Below are positions 23,598 through 31,810 of a stretch of 32,000 bases of DNA, piece by piece (position 1 is the stretch's first letter; each line of letters opens with the position of its first letter). The stretch is from Acaryochloris thomasi RCC1774. GTDB taxonomy: Bacteria > Cyanobacteriota > Cyanobacteriia > Thermosynechococcales > Thermosynechococcaceae. The notes below the pieces were generated by a model. It made no database searches, was not told where the DNA came from, and saw only the letters and a program-made list of their open reading frames with translations. A program made the translations under genes and the position numbers. The DNA is taken from assembly GCF_003231495.1 (NCBI RefSeq), contig NZ_PQWO01000015.1:101861-133860 (forward strand), read 5' to 3'.

Positions 23598-24077
23598 AGA
23601 AATTAAGACAAAGCTTTGAAGTTTCCCTAGGTCATCCTAGCCTATTGAAGTCGGACAGATTTCCAGACCCCAGATTGGCCAGAAGGTGATGATTTATGCA
23701 CCCATAAGATATCTTCAATGATTAATCCAGTATCCTTTACCCCATAAGCGTCACGAGCATTTCTCTATCAATTTCATCACCAACATTTTGGCTCTCAGAT
23801 ATCTTCACAAGTTCCTCAAGGTTCTAGCTTAGGGTGCTGTTAGTGTCAGGCGGATAACTCTGAAAACGCTAGCGCAGAGTCCCTAACCTTTGTTCAGACA
23901 CCTACGGGGTAAACATTAAAGTCGTTCAACTTTGCAATTAAATCTTTCAACTCAGCATCTATTGCGAACAAGGAACTGGGGTCCGAGGCCGTTTTATAGC
24001 TTGCTGTGATGGTTCGTAATCAACCCCACCTGTCAGAGAAAGAAACCAGCACACCATCACGGAACGAAGCAAAATCG

Positions 24078-24458
24078 ATGTCTACTAAGCAGATATTAGT
24101 GATCGATAACGAATGCTATATCCAGGAAATTATCCAAATTGCCCTCGAAACAATTAGCGGATGGCAGGTGTTCACAGCCGGTTCTGGACGCGAGGGACTA
24201 GCAATGGCGGAGCAAAGCCAACCCGATGCAATCCTGCTGGACGTAATGATGCCCGACATGGATGGCCTGACCACCTTTGCCAAACTACAGGAGAACAATA
24301 AAACTCAAGCCATTCCCGTCATTCTATTGACTGCTAAGGTACAGGCAGCCGATCAACAACGGTATCGAGACCTGGGTGTAAAAGCGACTCTATCCAAGCC
24401 CTTCGACCCCCTGCAGCTACCCACTCAGATCTCAGATGTACTAGGTTGGGCCACATAA
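24078..24458 (+). CDS. single-domain CheY-like response regulator
   Basis: KQILVIDNE, phospho-acceptor context AILLDVMMPDMDG, ILLTAK, and KP (SKPF). I chose ATG 24078. The ORF is open from GTG 24006 / ATG 24009. Confidence 0.85.
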   Translation: MSTKQILVIDNECYIQEIIQIALETISGWQVFTAGSGREGLAMAEQSQPDAILLDVMMPDMDGLTTFAKLQENNKTQAIPVILLTAKVQAADQQRYRDLGVKATLSKPFDPLQLPTQISDVLGWAT

Positions 24459-26148: not shown

Positions 26149-28434
26149 TTAAACTCGAAAAATCTCAAACTCGTCTTCTGGCCGCCCCACCCCTAAGGAT
26201 CGCTCCCCTTCAAAGGCATCAGCCGCACCGCTGGCAAAGTTAGCCACCGTGCCCAAAATAGGTAGACGAGAGCTACTAAGAGACTTAAGGGCCTTGAGTA
26301 CCAGTGAGTGCTGCGTTCGACCAATCCCCACAACCAGCAATAGGCCGTCAGCCTGCCAGCTCAGATACTGAGCATCCGTGTAATCCAAAAGGTGAGCCGT
26401 ATCATAGACAACCAGATCAAACATATTCTGGAACTGGCCCATTAAATACTGCATTTGAGCTGAAGCCAGTAGCTGACTGGCCCCAGCCAGGGACTGACCT
26501 GAAGACAGAATAAACAAGTTAGCGTGATGGGGCGATCGCTGGATGTACTGGGTCGGGTCGAGCTTCTTGTGCAGGATTTCACTCAACCCCTCAAAATTCG
26601 GTACCCCTAAATAGCTATGGAGCTGAGGCATGGCCATATTAGCATCCACTAGCAGCACCCGCTGCCCCGTGCTGGCGGCGACCTGCGAAAGATGCATAGC
26701 AGCCGTCGTTTTGCCATCGCGTGACGTGACGGAGCTCACCACTAACGACTGAATCGGCATCTCAGAGTTTAAGAACTTCAGCTTCGCATACAGAGCTTCG
26801 GCTGCGCGTCTGAGCATCTGTTGAGACTGTTTAGGGCTATGCAGATCGCCAATCTCATGGGTCTCTAGAACTGAGGCTGTCTCACTAAAGGGCAAAGCCC
26901 CTAATAAAGGTAGTTGAGTCTCATCTCTTAAATCTGCAGTGCTGTGAAAGACATTCTGTCGCTTCTCTCGGAGCAGCGACAGCCCTATCCCCAGCAACAG
27001 ACCGCCTAAGACGCCCAGCGCTAACTTGGCGGGTCGGCTTTGCCCTAGCGAGACAGGATCACCGTTCTGATCGCGACGAATCCCTGGGCTAACGGCAAGC
27101 TGCCAGGGAATCTGCTGCTGAGCATCTTCGACCTTGAGATTTTCTTGGTTTTCGAGCAGCTGATTGAGTGATTTGGTTGCACCCCCCAACTCACGCTGGA
27201 TCTCGTTATACCGACGCTGAATGGCAGGAAACTGCTGCAGCTTTCTGTCCACGGCCTCAGAGGCCTGCTGAGCAGCTTGACTCTGGACTTCTAGCACCTG
27301 GATATCATTTAGGGTTTCGACGAGTTGCTGGCTGAGACCTCGCTGTAGTGAGCCTTGAAAATTGGGTACGTTGCTGGCGCTGCCGTTCCCAGCCAAATTT
27401 TGGCTCGCTAGGTTGCGTGTCTCTTGACTTAGAAGGGTCTTTAGGTTGGCTTGCTTGGCCCTGAGGTCCTGCATTAGGGGGTTGTCATCGGTCAACGTGG
27501 CAGCCTGGGCTGCAATTTCAGTTTCAACCTGCTTCAGCTCCCCGATCAGTTGCTGATATCGAGGGTTCTCCGTGAGTGAAGAGGCCGCAATTGCTTCGCT
27601 AGGGGCTAGCCCTAGTTGTCCTTGTAGGTTGGCATACAGCGATTTTTGGGCCTGCAGCCTCCGCCGTACATCGAGCCGTTGAGACTCTAAGTCTCTTGCC
27701 TGCTGGGCTAACCCAGCACCCTCCGTATCAGGATTGGTGATTCGGTACTTTTGCTGTAGTTCCTGTAGCTGCTTTTCAAGGTTGGCAACGTTCTGACGGG
27801 CTTCAGGTAACTTTTTAGAGATGAAGGAAATCCCTTCGCCCAGATAGGTTTGTCGCTCCTCCTTACTATATTGAATATAGCCACTCGCCAGCTGCTCAAG
27901 GACAAAGTTTATCTGCTGAAGATCTGGATCTTGATAGGTGACGCCAATCAGTTTCGTTTTACCTGAGGAATCTTCAACCCGCTTAACGTTGAGGGTACCC
28001 GTAAGGCGGTTATGGTCAAGGTCGGCATAACGGGCCTGAATTTTGCCAATAATTTTGTTCAAGACGGTGGGGCTTTTGAGCAATCGAATCAGAGTAGCGT
28101 AGTCGGTCTCTGCTGATCCTGGCTGACTTTGCGGTGAAGAGGCAGCGGAATTCGTCAGCCGTCCTTCTGCGCTTAATGGCTCCACCAAAAGCTGAAACTC
28201 TCCCTCATACTGACGAGGCTGGCGCCAAACCAAGTAAAAGACTAAGCCAGAAATGCCCAAGGTTGTCGCTAAAATCAAGAGGAGGTTCCGGCGCAGAAAA
28301 CGCGAGACGGCCCCCACTCGCAGACCTTTTTTCGATGCCCCTTTGAAAGGAGCCATATGCTTGAAGGCTAGATCTTCTGATTGCTCATAAGCTGTAAGAA
28401 GGGACACGGTTGTCTCGTCGGGGTCAGTTCTCAT
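26149..28434 (-). CDS. GumC/Wzz-Wzc-like polysaccharide co-polymerase with C-terminal P-loop (BY-kinase-like) domain
   Basis: TM1 LLLILATTLGISGLVFYLVW, a ~400-aa coiled-coil-rich periplasmic region, TM2 LALGVLGGLLLGIGLSLL, then SSVTSRDGKTT (Walker A) and DLVVYDTA (Walker B). Confidence 0.85.
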   Translation of the reverse strand: MRTDPDETTVSLLTAYEQSEDLAFKHMAPFKGASKKGLRVGAVSRFLRRNLLLILATTLGISGLVFYLVWRQPRQYEGEFQLLVEPLSAEGRLTNSAASSPQSQPGSAETDYATLIRLLKSPTVLNKIIGKIQARYADLDHNRLTGTLNVKRVEDSSGKTKLIGVTYQDPDLQQINFVLEQLASGYIQYSKEERQTYLGEGISFISKKLPEARQNVANLEKQLQELQQKYRITNPDTEGAGLAQQARDLESQRLDVRRRLQAQKSLYANLQGQLGLAPSEAIAASSLTENPRYQQLIGELKQVETEIAAQAATLTDDNPLMQDLRAKQANLKTLLSQETRNLASQNLAGNGSASNVPNFQGSLQRGLSQQLVETLNDIQVLEVQSQAAQQASEAVDRKLQQFPAIQRRYNEIQRELGGATKSLNQLLENQENLKVEDAQQQIPWQLAVSPGIRRDQNGDPVSLGQSRPAKLALGVLGGLLLGIGLSLLREKRQNVFHSTADLRDETQLPLLGALPFSETASVLETHEIGDLHSPKQSQQMLRRAAEALYAKLKFLNSEMPIQSLVVSSVTSRDGKTTAAMHLSQVAASTGQRVLLVDANMAMPQLHSYLGVPNFEGLSEILHKKLDPTQYIQRSPHHANLFILSSGQSLAGASQLLASAQMQYLMGQFQNMFDLVVYDTAHLLDYTDAQYLSWQADGLLLVVGIGRTQHSLVLKALKSLSSSRLPILGTVANFASGAADAFEGERSLGVGRPEDEFEIFRV

Positions 28435-28751: not shown

Positions 28752-29276
28752 TTAGAGGGAGTCACTACAGTCAACAAGGTGGGGCTGAGTGGGTCGGATT
28801 GTTTCTCGCTCAAGGTCAACGGCCCAAGCCTGCAGAACCTGATTGGTCTGATCTTTCATCACGGCAAAAACCGGCTGCTTGCGCTTTCGAGTATGTCTAC
28901 AGGTCGCACTGATGCTCTGCTGATCATTATTGAGGCGCGCTAAGGTCCGAATCTGAACAACTTTCCAGATGGCTTTTTTCTCAGGGGTATAACCCACTAA
29001 ACGCTGCAGCAAAAGGTAGGAGGCTTCGTTGCGATCGCAAATCACTCCCCCATACTCAACAGCCTGAGTTTTACCCAAGAGCGCATCACTGTAGCCCGGA
29101 CAGAGTCCCGTTGGCAGCTCAACATATTCTTGCCCCTCCAGCTGCAGAACATCCTGAGCAACCCTAGAAACCCTGCAGCCTAAAGCTGCCTGCCCTAAGA
29201 CAAAGGAGCCGAGACAAACAGAAGCTGCAACAGAAGGAATCCACAACAGAGGCCGCCTAGGAAACACGGTCATCAT
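28752..29276 (-). CDS. hypothetical secreted protein (174 aa, 6 Cys)
   Basis: ATG-ATG start and an N-terminal hydrophobic signal-like segment (LLWIPSVAASVCLGSFVLGQAALG). Located upstream of and co-directional with the Wzc-like gene. No family recognised. Confidence 0.55.
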   Translation of the reverse strand: MMTVFPRRPLLWIPSVAASVCLGSFVLGQAALGCRVSRVAQDVLQLEGQEYVELPTGLCPGYSDALLGKTQAVEYGGVICDRNEASYLLLQRLVGYTPEKKAIWKVVQIRTLARLNNDQQSISATCRHTRKRKQPVFAVMKDQTNQVLQAWAVDLERETIRPTQPHLVDCSDSL

Positions 29277-29461
29277 CCTGCTTGCCCCTCTGATAATGAC
29301 AGGCTCAGATCATCATTGATTTTGAACTGAAACAATACGCTTACAGGCTCCTGCACTCGACACCATTTTTGCCACAGTTGACCAAAGCCCAATGCAGCCC
29401 TACGGATTCTAGCAAAAACCCTCAACTTCCAGGAACCCAAATACTACGTATTATTACGCAG

Positions 29462-29522
29462 GCATAAATAGCTACATCAATACTGGCATAAATAAAAACA
29501 ATTATCTGCATAGATAAAAACA
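29462..29522. repeat. three spaced direct repeats GCATA(A/G)ATA(AAAACA) in an A/T-rich divergent control region
   Basis: GCATAAATA at 29462-29470, GCATAAATAAAAACA at 29486-29500, and GCATAGATAAAAACA at 29508-29522. Periods are 24 and 22 bp. Confidence 0.5.
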
Positions 29523-29931
29523 TCTTTTAATCTATTTTGTTTTACATAGAATGGATAAATTTATAATTTTTCTGCGGACAGGAAAGAAAAAACTTTCTGC
29601 CCTGCAACCCTTACTGAAAGAAGGATAGAGAAATCCATTCTTGGCGAAAAATTATCTAGGGCACGAAAAAATGTCTTTTCTCAGTATTGTTAACTACAGC
29701 AGAAAGAGCTTCTAAATCCGGAGATCGTTTTATATTACTCTGCGGGTATAATAGGAGTATGAGGCACGAACCAATTAGACTCAATCGCGATTCTAAAGAT
29801 GCCTAAACATAATTTTTGACATCGCTTCCCCAGCTCAAAGATGACGTCGGATTGCCGAATACCGCTGTGTTCTCTTACTGAGAGGACCTGCGGAACACCC
29901 TGCACTATTTTTAGCAACCTAGGAGACTCTT

Positions 29932-30924
29932 GTGTTGACCAAGTCCTCCCGAACTCGGGAAAAACTTCGTATCGGGGAAGTGCTGATGCAGCAGGGCCTG
30001 ATCAATCAGGCTCAACTGACTGCAGCTCTAGCTGAGCAAAAGCATAGCGGCACTCAGCTAGGAGAAATCTTGGTCAGTCACGGTTGGGTTAATCGAACAC
30101 AGCTTCGACAGGCACTCAATGAGCAGCGTTGGAGAAACCTAATTGCAACAGTACTGCTCTCCACAACAACTTTGCTTCCTAGCGCAACTCAGCTGGTTAC
30201 AAACACTCCTGTGGTCGCTCATAGCAGTCCGATTGAACAGGACGACATCTTGCAATTTCGGAATGATAGACCGGAGCGACTGCCTAAAAAGATGAATCCA
30301 GTCGCGGCAAACTATGAGCATGACACAAGCTATATGAGCCTCATAGATACAGGAGGCGCTGAAACTGCATCAGCCAGTCAGGCAAAGCCTGCTACCGAAA
30401 GTGTCCTTGCACAGCAACCGCTCCAAGACAATCCAACCGTTTCATCTCCCCTTCAGGGCTTCTGCCATCCTTTAAACGGTCAAGGCTGGCTGAGTCAGGG
30501 AATTCGCGGCCGGACCCATCAAGGCCGCATGGAGTATGCCTACGATTTAGCAGCTGACATTGGCACACCTGTTTATGCAATGCGTCCAGGTCGAGTGATT
30601 GCAGTTCAGGACAAGTACCCTGATACCGGGGGGGGCAAAGAGAATATTGCGAAGTTCAATTACGTTTGGGTTGAGCATGACGGTGGGTATCGATCTGCCT
30701 ATATTCATCTACAGCAAGGATTTGTTGGCAGCATCGGCATCAAAGCCGGAGACTGGGTCGAAGCCGGTCAACTGATCGGCTACAGCGGCAACTCAGGATG
30801 GAGCACCGGCCCCCATCTACACCTAGAAGTGCAAAGGCCAGGAAGAAATACGCGCCAGTTTACCAAGACGGCTCCCTTTGCTATTGCTGGCACCTGTGAC
30901 AACGGTCAACTAGCTCGCAAATAG
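29932..30924 (+). CDS. membrane-anchored M23 family metallopeptidase with N-terminal tandem MshEN (T2SSE_N)-type motifs
   Basis: GTG start with AGGAG 6 nt upstream. aa 13-36 and 42-65 fit the MshEN 24-mer motif. Hydrophobic segment at aa ~70-90. M23 motifs THQGRMEYAYDLAADIGTPVYA and GNSGWSTGPHLHLEV. Confidence 0.85.
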   Translation: MLTKSSRTREKLRIGEVLMQQGLINQAQLTAALAEQKHSGTQLGEILVSHGWVNRTQLRQALNEQRWRNLIATVLLSTTTLLPSATQLVTNTPVVAHSSPIEQDDILQFRNDRPERLPKKMNPVAANYEHDTSYMSLIDTGGAETASASQAKPATESVLAQQPLQDNPTVSSPLQGFCHPLNGQGWLSQGIRGRTHQGRMEYAYDLAADIGTPVYAMRPGRVIAVQDKYPDTGGGKENIAKFNYVWVEHDGGYRSAYIHLQQGFVGSIGIKAGDWVEAGQLIGYSGNSGWSTGPHLHLEVQRPGRNTRQFTKTAPFAIAGTCDNGQLARK

Positions 30925-31090: not shown

Positions 31091-31810
31091 ATGCCAGAAC
31101 CGACCAGTGCCTCTAGCCCCCACCTTGATTCCCGCACCCAGTGGGTTTCAATTTTTTCCTTGCGATTGGCAGGCTACGTCTTGCTGGCACTCTCAGCTTT
31201 TGACGTGGCAACGATTATGTTCCCGCCAGATTTCTTCAACCCGCAATGGGAATTTTATACGCTGGGAAAACTGGTGGATAAGGTTCCGGTTCCTTTGATC
31301 GGTCTCGCTTTAGTTTTCTACGGTGGGTTGCGCTATCGTCGGCCTCTTGAAAAGCTCTGCCTGCGTCCCTTAGCTTTAATCGCCGTTATCGTCGGAGTTG
31401 GCTATTTACTCCTAATTCCACTCGGCATCTCTAACAGCATTCGCCTGCAGCATTTGAACCGGGCCCAACAATCTCTACAGCAGAATGAGCAAAAATCCCG
31501 CTATCGGCAACTAGAACAGCAGATTCAGAATGCTTCCCCCGATCGGGTGCTCCCCTTAGCCCGCCGCTGGAGATTGGTATCGGCAGAAGCAGATCAGGAT
31601 GCGCCTGAGGACGTGAAGGCAAAGGCGCTCTCTCAGCTACAAAAGAACCAAACATTACAGCAGCAACAGAGTCTTGCCGCGGATAAAACGAAGCAACAGC
31701 AGCATCTCAAAAATTCGATAAAGTGGATTGTGGGCGCACTGCTGGCGGGTTCCTGTCTCATTTACTTGGGCATCGGCGCAAACAAGGCCTTTTTACTAGG
31801 ACTCCAGTAG
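31091..31810 (+). CDS. membrane protein with Gln-rich coiled-coil insert (possibly HpsJ family)
   Basis: Three N-terminal and one C-terminal hydrophobic helices flank a Q-rich segment (QQSLQQNEQKSRYRQLEQQIQ ... QKNQTLQQQQSLAADKTKQQQH). The PxFFNPQWEF...VPVPLIGLALVFYGG block recalls cyanobacterial HpsJ annotations. The family call is from memory only. Confidence 0.6.
   Translation: MPEPTSASSPHLDSRTQWVSIFSLRLAGYVLLALSAFDVATIMFPPDFFNPQWEFYTLGKLVDKVPVPLIGLALVFYGGLRYRRPLEKLCLRPLALIAVIVGVGYLLLIPLGISNSIRLQHLNRAQQSLQQNEQKSRYRQLEQQIQNASPDRVLPLARRWRLVSAEADQDAPEDVKAKALSQLQKNQTLQQQQSLAADKTKQQQHLKNSIKWIVGALLAGSCLIYLGIGANKAFLLGLQ

Follow-up and report, generated by a model that had tools for sequence, protein, structure and literature searches.

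The open reading frame at 29932-30924 (forward strand) of the window, the whole stretch of 32,000 nt of Acaryochloris thomasi RCC1774 DNA that was analysed, encodes a protein of 330 aa in which an MshEN_N module is joined to an M23 peptidase domain by a hydrophobic segment and a disordered linker. We consider it somewhat better than an even chance (probability about 0.55) that this is a bitopic protein whose c-di-GMP-binding MshEN_N module tethers a periplasmic wall peptidase and positions it at the site of exopolysaccharide (EPS)/PEP-CTERM export. The identities of the domains, the conservation of residues, the synteny and the co-variation of cysteines were computed; ligand binding, topology, catalysis and the mechanism of localisation are inferred.

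RESULTS

The gene, its start and its relatives

The coordinates and sequences of the gene were rechecked and are as follows.

29932-30924, + strand: CDS; MshEN_N, hydrophobic segment, disordered linker, M23 peptidase domain
29921-29925, + strand: AGGAG, Shine-Dalgarno-like, 6 nt ahead of the GTG start (letters read directly)

The preliminary description of this DNA had placed the start at GTG 29932 with AGGAG six nucleotides before it, and the sequence bears this out. An in-frame TAG at 29920-29922 bounds the open reading frame, so that no start lies farther upstream, and the only start candidates 5′ of motif 1 are GTG 29932 and TTG 29935. A translation start at M19 or later, which had been named as a finding that would count against the reading, is very unlikely since orthologues share the conserved residues 1-18 (MLTKSSR..K.RIGE). 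Scans for promoters and terminators near 29932-30924 gave background levels only, and neither a c-di-GMP riboswitch nor any other Rfam family was found in the 32-kb window.

The protein is 100% identical to the RCC1774 protein annotated as ‘Lysostaphin’, and 120 full-length relatives share 49-82% identity with it. The proposed domain order (MshEN motifs, hydrophobic segment, linker, M23) was recovered by profile searches, PDB matches, AF2 modelling and Foldseek. This architecture is not new. It was catalogued in 2016 as ‘MshEN_N - Peptidase_M23’, with A. marina NlpD AM1_1153 as an entry, in Acaryochloris and Crinalium (Wang et al. 2016, Suppl. Table 4; PMC5013675); we found it in at least 10 cyanobacterial genera or families, with at least four copies in A. 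marina. The preliminary description knew of no characterised example. Our literature search likewise found neither such an example nor experiments on this fusion, although the fusion itself had been listed in 2016 (AM1_1153). A phmmer search with aa 1-90 returned 4895 representatives. Elsewhere, MshEN_N is also found directly before a membrane segment, with outputs that include C39-like peptidases, beta-helix and Ig/fn3 domains.

The N-terminal MshEN_N module

The consensus of Wang et al. (2016) reads RLGxx(L/V/I)(L/V/I)xxG(L/V/I/F)(L/V/I)xxxxLxxxLxxQ and is present in two copies in a 53-residue unit. The corresponding features are as follows.

29968-30039, + strand: MshEN motif 1, aa 13-36, RIGEVLMQQGLINQAQLTAALAEQ (NCBIfam profile, conservation in 113 relatives)
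30040-30054, + strand: inter-motif spacer KHSGT, 5 residues (length kept, sequence varies)
30055-30126, + strand: MshEN motif 2, aa 42-65, QLGEILVSHGWVNRTQLRQALNEQ (conservation in 113 relatives)

In a six-frame search of the 32-kb window the relaxed form of this motif occurred exactly twice, both times within 29932-30924, against a mean of 0.06 in shuffled sequences. The NCBIfam model NF053729.1 (‘c-di-GMP_motif, MshE-related’) matched aa 13-65 over its full length (1-53 of 53) with 68.1 bits versus a cut-off of 38 (E=4e-19). Against the PDB, phmmer identified Vibrio cholerae MshE (5HTL, E=7.5e-8) and Thermus thermophilus PilF (E=3e-14). AF2 placed helices at 14-20, 26-39, 43-49 and 55-84, the four-helix arrangement of MshEN_N. 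For an AF2 model of aa 1-92 (pLDDT 68) the best PDB match was 5HTL, MshE with c-di-GMP (5HTL_B, 0.7 Å over 52 columns, 40% identity; Foldseek probability 1.00, with an E of only 0.036 because the domain is short). The c-di-GMP-bound PilF GSPII-B followed at 0.8-1.0 Å, and the top 17 matches were all MshEN/GSPII. The letters, the NF053729 profile and the PDB matches thus confirm the tandem 24-residue motifs where they had been reported, as well as the five-residue spacer, which is variable in sequence and has a length of 5 aa in 112 of the 113 relatives.

Conservation follows the consensus closely. In an alignment of 113 sequences with 45% mean column identity, the consensus positions of both motifs, among them G3, L6, G10, L17, L21 and Q24, are near-invariant and the ‘x’ positions vary. 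In motif 1, G15, L33 and Q36 are invariant, R13 is present in 103/113 and L18, G22, I24 and L29 in at least 96%; in motif 2, no relative departs from G44, L62 and Q65, and L43, L47 and G51 are near-invariant. The RCC1774 protein departs from the 24-residue consensus at I14, M19, Q42 and W52 and retains all the ligand-contacting positions. Q42, the first residue of motif 2, falls outside the relaxed residue set of Wang et al.; 100 of the 113 relatives have K here. According to published data, c-di-GMP is contacted by the backbone at Gly3/x4, by Gln24 and by the Leu triads, mutation of a position-1-type residue shifts the affinity less than 5-fold, and isolated VcMshEN_N 1-62 binds c-di-GMP with a KD of 0.35 µM (PMC5013675). 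Motif conservation, taken together with these data on the module, suggests that the RCC1774 module would bind one c-di-GMP.

It could be argued that an MshEN-derived fold no longer senses c-di-GMP and is used by a housekeeping peptidoglycan endopeptidase only for anchoring in the cytoplasm or for dimerisation. MshEN domains are often degenerate, e.g. XpsE (PMC5013675), and motif 2 of the RCC1774 protein lacks the position-1 Arg. Some paralogues retain only half a motif (NIWVGERLVQQGM) and clearly cannot bind, and the presence of several paralogues per genome suggests partly redundant wall enzymes. We regard such a loss of sensing as unlikely, since the ligand-contacting positions and the 5-aa spacer stayed near-invariant across the 113 sequences while other positions drifted, and none of the XpsE-type binding-killing substitutions is found in the RCC1774 module.

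With the threshold relaxed to E≤10, Pfam PF05157 (T2SSE_N) still did not match the protein, and no more than a weak match to DUF4388 was obtained. The preliminary description had held that the lack of a T2SSE_N match would refute its reading. The match is indeed lacking, but the test is not a valid one because PF05157 covers MshEN_N plus MshEN_C and the protein has the 53-residue N subdomain only; the matches to NF053729 and to the fold are strong. The protein is thus ‘MshEN_N only’ in the classification of Wang et al., without MshEN_C, and is not a T2SSE_N domain protein.

Membrane segment, linker and topology

The module is followed by two features.

30127-30189, + strand: RWRN and hydrophobic segment aa 70-86, LIATVLLSTTTLLPSAT (AF2 helix, hydropathy)
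30190-30426, + strand: disordered linker aa 87-165, poorly conserved (AF2 pLDDT, alignment)

The hydrophobic segment noted earlier is present at aa 70-86, but it is short (17 residues) and weak. Its KD19 is 1.33 and its Hessa sum about +5.1 kcal/mol, compared with 1.9-2.6 and -1.8 to +2.5 for the clear TM helices of the window. AF2 places the last MshEN helix and this segment in one continuous helix, aa 55-84. On the N-terminal side of the segment R68 is present in 107/113 relatives and N69 is invariant; position 87 is K/R in 92/113. We consider aa 70-86 a probable weak signal-anchor, marginal by hydropathy. The linker has a pLDDT below 50 for aa 87-155 and is ~80 aa long here; across relatives its length is 40-102 aa, with a median of 65.

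The hydropathy of aa 70-86 is typical of signal peptides, not of TM helices, and the h-region of ~13-17 residues is Ser/Thr-rich and is followed by Pro/small residues (LLPSAT). This would also fit an internal signal peptide whose Sec/SRP export, possibly with cleavage and release, is gated by the c-di-GMP-bound MshEN. The folded module with its nucleotide would then either permit or prevent targeting, and c-di-GMP would set the amount of peptidase that arrives in the periplasm. Since the MshEN helix is contiguous with the hydrophobic segment, the ligand would bind right at the targeting signal. We nevertheless think gated export improbable. It is without precedent for MshEN, no AxA-type cleavage site is conserved (relatives have LPSLPK, APNLPQ or VTAFPK), and the R68-N69 junction together with the conserved K/R87 resembles fixed membrane boundaries.

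Evidence on the compartment of the M23 domain came from cysteines. In each of the 32 loci with a Cys in the strand GFCHPL the C-terminal tail contains a single Cys, and in all eight loci without the strand Cys it contains none. This co-variation of C178 and C322 argues for a disulfide, which in turn implies an oxidising compartment; we propose the C178-C322 bond from the co-variation in sequence only. Members of the same M23 subfamily were also found following ordinary N-terminal anchors and as parts of very large secreted S8-peptidase fusions. The co-varying cysteines and these anchored or secreted paralogues suggest, indirectly, that the M23 domain is extracytoplasmic. The hydropathy of aa 70-86, which falls under the usual TM thresholds, would allow a wholly cytoplasmic protein whose hydrophobic stretch is hidden inside a soluble fold or at a dimer interface. 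Against this stand the co-variation, the homologous domains that follow clear signal anchors or form part of secreted multidomain proteins, and the extracytoplasmic location of M23 substrates, and we give a cytoplasmic protein hardly any weight.

The M23 domain

The C-terminal domain contains the following features.

30445-30903, + strand: M23/LytM domain with the subfamily-specific N-terminal strand GFCHPL and a C-terminal Cys (Pfam, Foldseek)
30517-30546, + strand: HQGRMEYAYD, H196-x8-D205, atypical first metal-ligand region (lysostaphin alignment)
30814-30822, + strand: HxH, H295-L-H297 (invariant in 113 relatives)

Pfam PF01551 matched aa 200-305 with E=1.7e-21 (76.6 bits versus a gathering threshold of 28.7), which confirms the earlier call of an M23 domain. 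Foldseek matched ShyA, StM23, Csd1, lysostaphin and LytM at E values of 2e-9 to 1e-6. It also matched the degenerate LytM domains of DipM (7QRL) and EnvC (4BH5, 8C0J), with TM-scores on a par with those of active enzymes, and NCBIfam gave weak matches to the ActS, EnvC and SpoIIQ models.

Eight residues, H196, D205, H249, H259, H295, H297, C178 and C322, are invariant in 113 relatives. The HxxxD motif is absent: D205 is present, and E201 occupies the canonical His position (MHYGVD in lysostaphin versus MEYAYD). Among 120 relatives, 94 have E at this position, 16 have A and 1 has T; the secreted S8-fusion paralogues have Q/E. A role for E201 as a substitute zinc ligand is weakened by Ala/Thr in ~14% of relatives and by Gln in the secreted paralogues. 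Five residues upstream of position 201 lies the invariant H196, giving H-x8-D, and the additional catalytic His, H259, and the HxH are both present. We propose from this pattern that H196 may be a metal ligand in an unusual H-x8-D...H...HxH site.

The preliminary description had called the domain a cell-wall endopeptidase. The M23 fold, D205, H259 and HxH are in keeping with that, but with the canonical first zinc His replaced by E201 catalytic competence is not assured. In Bacillus subtilis SpoIIQ, the loss of this one ligand reportedly can leave a LytM domain non-catalytic. A protein of this kind would combine a c-di-GMP-binding module with a non-catalytic LytM factor, as in EnvC, NlpD, DipM or SpoIIQ, acting as an activator of a periplasmic amidase or as scaffold of an envelope-spanning complex, an interaction that c-di-GMP would tune via localisation. 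The E, A or T at position 201, the comparable TM-scores of DipM and EnvC and the weak NCBIfam matches would all agree with it. We judge a non-catalytic factor to be a real but minor possibility. D205, H259, H295, H297 and the extra H196 are invariant in 113 relatives, and we know of no such conservation of ligand residues in EnvC- or NlpD-type domains. The H-x8-D variant also occurs in the large secreted S8-peptidase fusions, which resemble lytic enzymes, and M23A enzymes such as LasA have a long H...D spacing too.

Gene neighbourhood

The M23 gene sits between genes for a Wzc-like kinase and an HpsJ-like protein.

26149-28434, - strand: Wzz/Wzc-like polysaccharide co-polymerase tyrosine autokinase (Pfam Wzz and AAA_31)
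28752-29276, - strand: 174-aa hypothetical protein with an N-terminal hydrophobic segment, divergently transcribed, a conserved neighbour
31091-31810, + strand: HpsJ-like protein, cyanoexosortase A-associated (NCBIfam NF050013, 226 bits versus a cut-off of 140)

The Wzc-like gene matched the NCBIfam models eps_fam, Wzc and XrtA-associated tyrosine autokinase below cut-off, and it is also found upstream in loci L003/L019, L006, L007 and L034. The 174-aa neighbour matched no Pfam or NCBIfam family and had 6 word-index homologues only. By tblastn it adjoins the M23 gene in 11 further loci that were retrieved, upstream at 38-68% identity in L001, L002, L003, L006, L007, L008, L009, L012, L019 and L027 and downstream at 34% in L032. 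The HpsJ-like A gene starts 166 bp downstream of the M23 gene. It follows either the M23 gene or an M23-CrtA-CrtA-associated series in L001, L004, L006, L007, L008, L011, L012 and L027. The full order M23 - CrtA - CrtA-associated - HpsJ-like A was seen in L001/L012, L008, L004/L011 and L027, where the models used were TIGR03763 for CrtA, TIGR04153 for CrtA-associated and NF050013 for HpsJ-like A. L012 is the orthologue of A. marina MBIC11017. Orthologues lie directly before cyanoexosortase A in A. marina, Acaryochloris CCMEE 5410, IP29b_bin.137, Petrachloros mirabilis and Acaryochloridaceae SU_2_1. Cyanoexosortase A itself was absent from the 32-kb window and, in the closest relative, from the 5 kb downstream. 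This EPS/cyanoexosortase A context is new and was not part of the preliminary description.

Two wider readings of the context were rejected. The family as a whole is not tied to exosortase loci, as the association holds for one part of the tree only; distant paralogues (~50% identity) lie in unrelated gene contexts without the CrtA neighbourhood. Nor is the protein a PEP-CTERM exosortase substrate, as its C-terminus (...PFAIAGTCDNGQLARK) has neither a PEP motif nor a hydrophobic tail.

DISCUSSION

Proposed mechanism and significance

We picture a single-pass inner-membrane protein with its N-terminus inside and its C-terminus outside. A cytoplasmic stand-alone MshEN_N would hold one c-di-GMP, and its last helix would pass without a break into a short signal-anchor rich in Ser and Thr. 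Beyond it, some 80 flexible residues would tether the M23 (LytM-type) domain, stapled by the C178-C322 disulfide, in the periplasm. There the domain would most likely cleave peptidoglycan cross-links through the H-x8-D...H...HxH metal site. c-di-GMP would set the location, clustering or partner binding of the protein at the cytoplasmic face of the membrane, and high c-di-GMP would lead to local wall remodelling at the site of exopolysaccharide/PEP-CTERM protein export. A role at such a site is suggested by the neighbouring Wzc-like kinase and HpsJ-like protein and by the cyanoexosortase A of the orthologues.

The preliminary description had envisaged direct c-di-GMP control of the peptidase. 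As allostery this is unlikely, since the tether is disordered and variable in length (~80 aa here, 40-102 aa in relatives) and the membrane segment is marginal. Control by location or clustering is more likely and fits the anatomy better. We also put forward, tentatively and with a good deal less confidence than the account of the protein itself, that proteins with MshEN_N before a membrane segment may form a general and so far unrecognised one-polypeptide, ‘inside-out’ class of c-di-GMP receptors, with enzymes or adhesive domains as extracytoplasmic outputs. In the present protein c-di-GMP would then be coupled to a local opening of peptidoglycan for cyanoexosortase A/EPS export.

Light colour drives c-di-GMP in cyanobacteria, and the messenger in turn controls aggregation, EPS and motility, but few of its effectors are known. 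The routes by which c-di-GMP signals reach the periplasm are, to our knowledge, understood for very few systems, essentially LapD, and we know of no peptidoglycan hydrolase that is a direct c-di-GMP receptor. If the inside-out reading is true, the RCC1774 protein would be the first case of direct control of a peptidoglycan hydrolase by a cyclic dinucleotide. A c-di-GMP-positioned wall peptidase beside the uncharacterised cyanoexosortase A system would link three fields with few connections so far: signalling by second messengers, remodelling of the wall and PEP-CTERM/EPS export. What limits the value of the finding is that the architecture was already catalogued in 2016 and the functional reading is a deduction. 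The family nevertheless offers a compact test case, with a 53-residue sensor, one membrane pass, a tether and one enzyme domain.

Comparison with known systems

The nearest described protein is AM1_1153 (‘NlpD’) of A. marina (Wang et al. 2016 Nat Commun 7:12481, Suppl. Tables 3-4), a protein of identical architecture from another member of the genus. The RCC1774 protein can be aligned with its N-terminal sequence, MYLVRIGKVLT..QKLGELIL..EQRCRNFLACSLTLSTLGP. The A. marina MBIC11017 sequence whose N-terminus equals the printed AM1_1153 (L025) is ~51-52% identical to the RCC1774 protein. The gene context of AM1_1153, a paralogue, is unrelated (close relative P0112/L088), whereas the RCC1774 gene belongs to the clade of the Wzc/cyanoexosortase A loci.

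MshE (5HTL) and PilF GSPII-B likewise have two 24-residue motifs, a 5-residue gap and four helices, and the predicted fold of the RCC1774 module agrees with theirs to 0.7-1.0 Å over 52 residues at 40-44% identity. In MshE and PilF, MshEN_C is present and cytoplasmic secretion or pilus ATPases are regulated. The RCC1774 protein, in contrast, has MshEN_N only, joined to a membrane segment, and its predicted output lies across the membrane. MshEN_N also feeds exopolysaccharide systems in Escherichia coli NfrB (GT2 - MshEN, a c-di-GMP-activated glycosyltransferase) and Methylobacillus EpsG (MshEN_N - AAA_31 tyrosine kinase), architectures given in the same table as AM1_1153 (PMC5013675). The RCC1774 N-terminus matches the MshEN parts of the NfrB, PRK15489 and EpsG models. 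Direct allostery is plausible for NfrB and EpsG because their output domain is cytoplasmic, while that of the RCC1774 protein is predicted to be periplasmic. The Methylobacillus eps locus includes the prototype exosortase EpsH.

In the LapD-LapG system of Pseudomonas fluorescens, a cytoplasmic c-di-GMP receptor governs the activity of a periplasmic protease across the inner membrane. The likeness is one of concept only, without homology. LapD is built from a degenerate EAL domain, a HAMP relay and, in the periplasm, a folded domain by which a separate protease is sequestered; the RCC1774 protein, unlike LapD, is one polypeptide with no relay domain and a disordered tether. In Sinorhizobium meliloti RgsP-RgsM, a c-di-GMP-related membrane protein and a membrane-anchored M23 metallopeptidase act in wall growth (PMC6107284). 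These are two proteins, RgsP is a c-di-GMP phosphodiesterase and not an MshEN receptor, and they serve polar growth rather than EPS loci.

Finally, the RCC1774 M23 domain has the fold and the D...H...HxH in common with the M23B peptidases lysostaphin, LytM, ShyA, MepM and Csd1 as well as with the degenerate LytM factors EnvC, NlpD, DipM and SpoIIQ. It is set apart from these by Glu, Ala or Thr in place of the HxxxD His, by H-x8-D, by the GFCHPL strand and by the C-terminal Cys.

Reading frame and start codon

Coordinates, sequence and the AGGAG/GTG spacing of the M23 gene agree with the preliminary description. The gene and its upstream region contain the following features:

29277-29931, intergenic region of 655 bp between a divergent 174-aa gene and the M23 gene
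29921-29925, + strand, Shine-Dalgarno-like AGGAG, six nt before GTG 29932
29932-30924, + strand, ORF of the M23 protein, read directly in the sequence
30463-30465 and 30895-30897, + strand, codons of Cys178 and Cys322, a co-varying pair
30517-30546, + strand, H-x8-D first metal-ligand region, from alignment

The ORF encodes a protein 100% identical to the Acaryochloris thomasi RCC1774 protein annotated 'Lysostaphin'. An in-frame TAG at 29920-29922 makes a translation start further upstream impossible, and GTG 29932 and TTG 29935 are the only candidate starts before motif 1. A start at M19 or later had been named as a finding that would count against the MshEN assignment; it is very unlikely, since residues 1-18 are kept in orthologues. 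No Rfam family or c-di-GMP riboswitch was found in the intergenic region, and its promoter-like sites did not exceed background.

A conserved MshEN_N module

Two 24-residue MshEN motifs (aa 13-36 and aa 42-65) separated by five residues were confirmed. NCBIfam NF053729 ('cyclic di-GMP-binding domain, MshE-related') covered the full length of the 53-residue unit, aa 13-65 (68.1 bits, with the cut-off at 38; E=4e-19). The same residues matched the MshEN portions of the NfrB, PRK15489, EpsG and PilB models, and a phmmer search of PDB sequences returned Vibrio cholerae MshE (5HTL, E=7.5e-8) as well as three GSPII domains of T. thermophilus PilF. In a six-frame translation of the 32-kb window the relaxed motif of Wang et al. 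occurred twice, both times in the M23 protein, versus a mean of 0.06 occurrences in composition-matched shuffles; a tandem motif by chance is excluded. The profile originally proposed as a check, Pfam PF05157 (T2SSE_N), did not match the M23 protein, while the MshE-related profile did so strongly. The PF05157 miss is not a valid refutation, since the protein has the 53-residue MshEN_N only, without MshEN_C; 'MshEN_N only' proteins are a separate class in Wang et al. (PMC5013675).

For an AF2 model of aa 1-92 (pLDDT 68), the best PDB match was 5HTL with c-di-GMP (rmsd 0.7 Å, 52 columns, 40% identity), followed by c-di-GMP-bound PilF GSPII-B structures (0.8-1.0 Å). The top 17 structural matches were all MshEN/GSPII domains; the shortness of the domain keeps the E-values weak (0.04).

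Among 113 full-length relatives (mean column identity 45%), Gly3, Leu21 and Gln24 never vary in either motif, at least 87% of sequences keep Leu6, Gly10 and Leu17, and the spacer is five residues long in all but one (112/113). The motif 'x' positions and the spacer sequence vary freely. These conserved positions are exactly the ligand-contacting positions of the MshE crystal structure, and their conservation is the strongest argument for function of the module. A rival reading is that the module is degenerate and non-sensing. Gln42, at position 1 of motif 2, does deviate from the motif; most relatives have Lys there, and mutation of the equivalent charged residues changed affinity less than five-fold (PMC5013675). 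Isolated VcMshEN_N (1-62) binds c-di-GMP with a KD of 0.35 µM (PMC5013675), and binding by the module of the M23 protein is predicted.

An H-x8-D variant of the M23 domain

The C-terminal M23 peptidase domain of the preliminary description was borne out by Pfam (M23/LytM, E=1.7e-21) and by fold matches to ShyA, StM23, Csd1, lysostaphin and LytM (E 2e-9 to 1e-6). Asp205, His259, His295 and His297 are invariant among relatives. The canonical first zinc-ligand His is absent, with Glu201 in its place (MHYGVD in lysostaphin, MEYAYD here); this residue is Glu in 94/120 relatives, Ala in 16 and Thr in 1, and Gln or Glu in secreted S8 fusions. Five residues upstream of Glu201, an invariant His196 creates an H-x8-D arrangement across the subfamily. 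Catalysis is likely, since M23A enzymes such as LasA also have a long H...D spacing, but it is not assured, since Bacillus subtilis SpoIIQ is non-catalytic through loss of this one ligand. The rival reading, a non-catalytic LytM factor, would follow the SpoIIQ case.

The H-x8-D subfamily also includes loci L045, L050, L051 and L053-L056, and forms the C-terminus of >1000-aa secreted S8-peptidase fusions in Microcoleus, Leptolyngbyaceae and Synechococcales. In the membrane-anchored members of the subfamily, two Cys residues co-vary.

Topology

Directly after Gln65 the sequence reads R-W-R-N (R68 in 107/113 relatives, N69 invariant); next come the hydrophobic residues 70-86 and, in most relatives, K/R. 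In the AF2 model aa 55-84 form one continuous helix, so that the last MshEN helix runs directly into the hydrophobic segment. The segment was present as described, but as a membrane span it is marginal: its KD 19-mer maximum is 1.33 and its Hessa sum about +5 kcal/mol, whereas the Wzc-like, HpsJ-like and CobS proteins nearby have clear TM helices with values of 1.9-2.6 and -1.8 to +2.5 kcal/mol. The segment looks like the h-region of a signal peptide or like a weak signal-anchor; c-di-GMP-gated export via an internal signal peptide is a rival reading.

Two independent lines suggest that the M23 domain lies outside the cytoplasm. The same subfamily also occurs behind ordinary strong N-terminal anchors and within the secreted S8 fusions. 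In addition, Cys178, in the subfamily motif GFCHPL, co-varies with Cys322 in the C-terminal tail: every one of the 32 loci in which the first Cys is present has a single tail Cys, whereas the 8 loci that lack it (L032, a full-length MshEN-M23 protein, and seven secreted or other M23-only paralogues) all lack a tail Cys too. This co-variation points to a structural disulfide, and so to an oxidising compartment. A cytoplasmic M23 protein, which the marginal hydropathy might allow, is very unlikely.

Gene neighbourhood

The M23 gene is embedded in an EPS-type neighbourhood, which the preliminary description had missed:

24006-24458, + strand, stand-alone response-regulator receiver of 150 aa (E=2e-24 to Pfam Response_reg), some 1.7 kb past the Wzc-like gene and only perhaps part of the EPS locus
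26149-28434, - strand, Wzz/Wzc-type tyrosine autokinase, upstream of the M23 gene
28752-29276, - strand, conserved 174-aa hypothetical protein without family, with an N-terminal hydrophobic segment, upstream and divergent
31091-31810, + strand, cyanoexosortase A-associated HpsJ-like protein (NF050013, 226 bits versus 140), directly downstream

The two closest relatives, L006 and L007, share the gene order Wzc, 174-aa protein, M23, HpsJ-like A. In five genomes (A. marina, Acaryochloris CCMEE 5410, IP29b_bin.137, Petrachloros mirabilis and Acaryochloridaceae SU_2_1) the orthologue lies directly 5' of cyanoexosortase A (CrtA, TIGR03763), a CrtA-associated gene (TIGR04153) and HpsJ-like A, and a Wzc-like gene is close to it in Altericista and Lyngbya. 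The window has no CrtA, and neither do the 5 kb downstream in L006. CrtA/Wzc-linked loci are spread over several basal branches of a rough NJ tree; more distant paralogues (about 50% identity) have unrelated gene contexts.

Exosortases process PEP-CTERM proteins, which tie EPS to the cell surface. The M23 protein has no PEP-CTERM tail and is therefore ruled out as a sorting substrate. The sole cyanobacterial exosortase study found in our literature search, on cyanoexosortase B, names neither an M23 protein nor c-di-GMP (PMC12188702).

Distribution and related architectures

With one genome scanned for each GTDB species, full-length MshEN_N-M23 relatives turned up only in cyanobacteria. Acaryochloris is among the carriers, and A. 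marina MBIC11017 has at least four full-length copies (L012, L018, L021 and L025), one on plasmid pREB2. Other carriers are further Acaryochloridaceae and Thermosynechococcaceae, Petrachloros, Altericista, Kovacikia, Stenomitos, Cyanosarcina, Lyngbya confervoides and Leptolyngbyaceae. On another contig, A. thomasi RCC1774 encodes a 397-aa paralogue (P0007) with two complete tandem 53-residue modules before the membrane segment. Five M23 ORFs of Acaryochloris spp. (L036, L037, L039, L040 and L041) begin with only a half motif (NIWVGERLVQQGM), after which come a Pro/Gln-rich stretch and a far stronger TM helix; these N-termini appear to be decayed modules that would no longer bind c-di-GMP.

An exhaustive phmmer search with aa 1-90 gave 4895 cluster representatives at E<=1e-3. 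Many of the best matches have 2-4 MshEN_N modules, a hydrophobic segment directly after them and then an extracytoplasmic-type domain:

P0154 and P0158, C39-like cysteine peptidase
P0195, beta-helix
P0226, Ig/fn3
P0140 (deltaproteobacterial MAG), about 150-aa region without domain assignment

None of these is among the eight 'MshEN_N only' architectures of Suppl. Table 4 of Wang et al. Such layouts suggest that there may be a general class of membrane-anchored MshEN_N c-di-GMP receptors with periplasmic outputs.

Proposed role and comparison with known systems

The preliminary description proposed a periplasmic peptidase under direct c-di-GMP control. Its domain layout is supported, but the tether opposes direct allosteric control: aa 87-155 are disordered in the AF2 model (pLDDT <50), and linker length ranges from 40 to 102 residues across relatives. 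The sensor module would sit against the inner membrane face, followed by a Ser/Thr-rich single span and a long, floppy, variable-length tether bearing a disulfide-stapled enzyme domain. This anatomy disfavours allosteric transmission and favours control by position, clustering or partner binding. Most likely, c-di-GMP bound to MshEN_N would recruit the protein to the cytoplasmic side of the EPS/PEP-CTERM export machinery (Wzc-like kinase, CrtA and HpsJ-like protein) or cluster it there, and the tethered M23 domain would open peptidoglycan locally at high c-di-GMP.

Overall, the observation is confirmed and its interpretation partly supported. Domain identities, residue conservation, synteny and Cys co-variation come directly from the analysis, while ligand binding, topology, catalysis and recruitment are inferred. 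The preliminary description knew of no characterised example of the fusion. Full-text searches found no paper combining MshEN with M23 and no M23 peptidase described as itself a c-di-GMP receptor, but the architecture has been on record since 2016, when Wang et al. listed 'MshEN_N - Peptidase_M23' in Suppl. Table 4 for A. marina NlpD (AM1_1153, ABW26190), without a reference and with the range Acaryochloris and Crinalium, and aligned the AM1_1153 N-terminus in Suppl. Table 3 (PMC5013675). This makes the window gene a new member of an architecture that is known but uncharacterised, and novelty is modest. Added here are the conservation evidence, the H-x8-D variant, the disulfide-based topology argument, a broader taxonomic range with paralogy, and the link of one clade to a cyanoexosortase A/Wzc locus. 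Biological interest is moderate, given a new link to exosortases and a hypothesis that lends itself to a clean test. The nearest case found in the literature is the Sinorhizobium meliloti pair of RgsP, a c-di-GMP phosphodiesterase, and RgsM, a membrane M23 protein. NfrB and the EpsG tyrosine kinase are precedents for an MshEN_N module that passes c-di-GMP signals into an EPS system.
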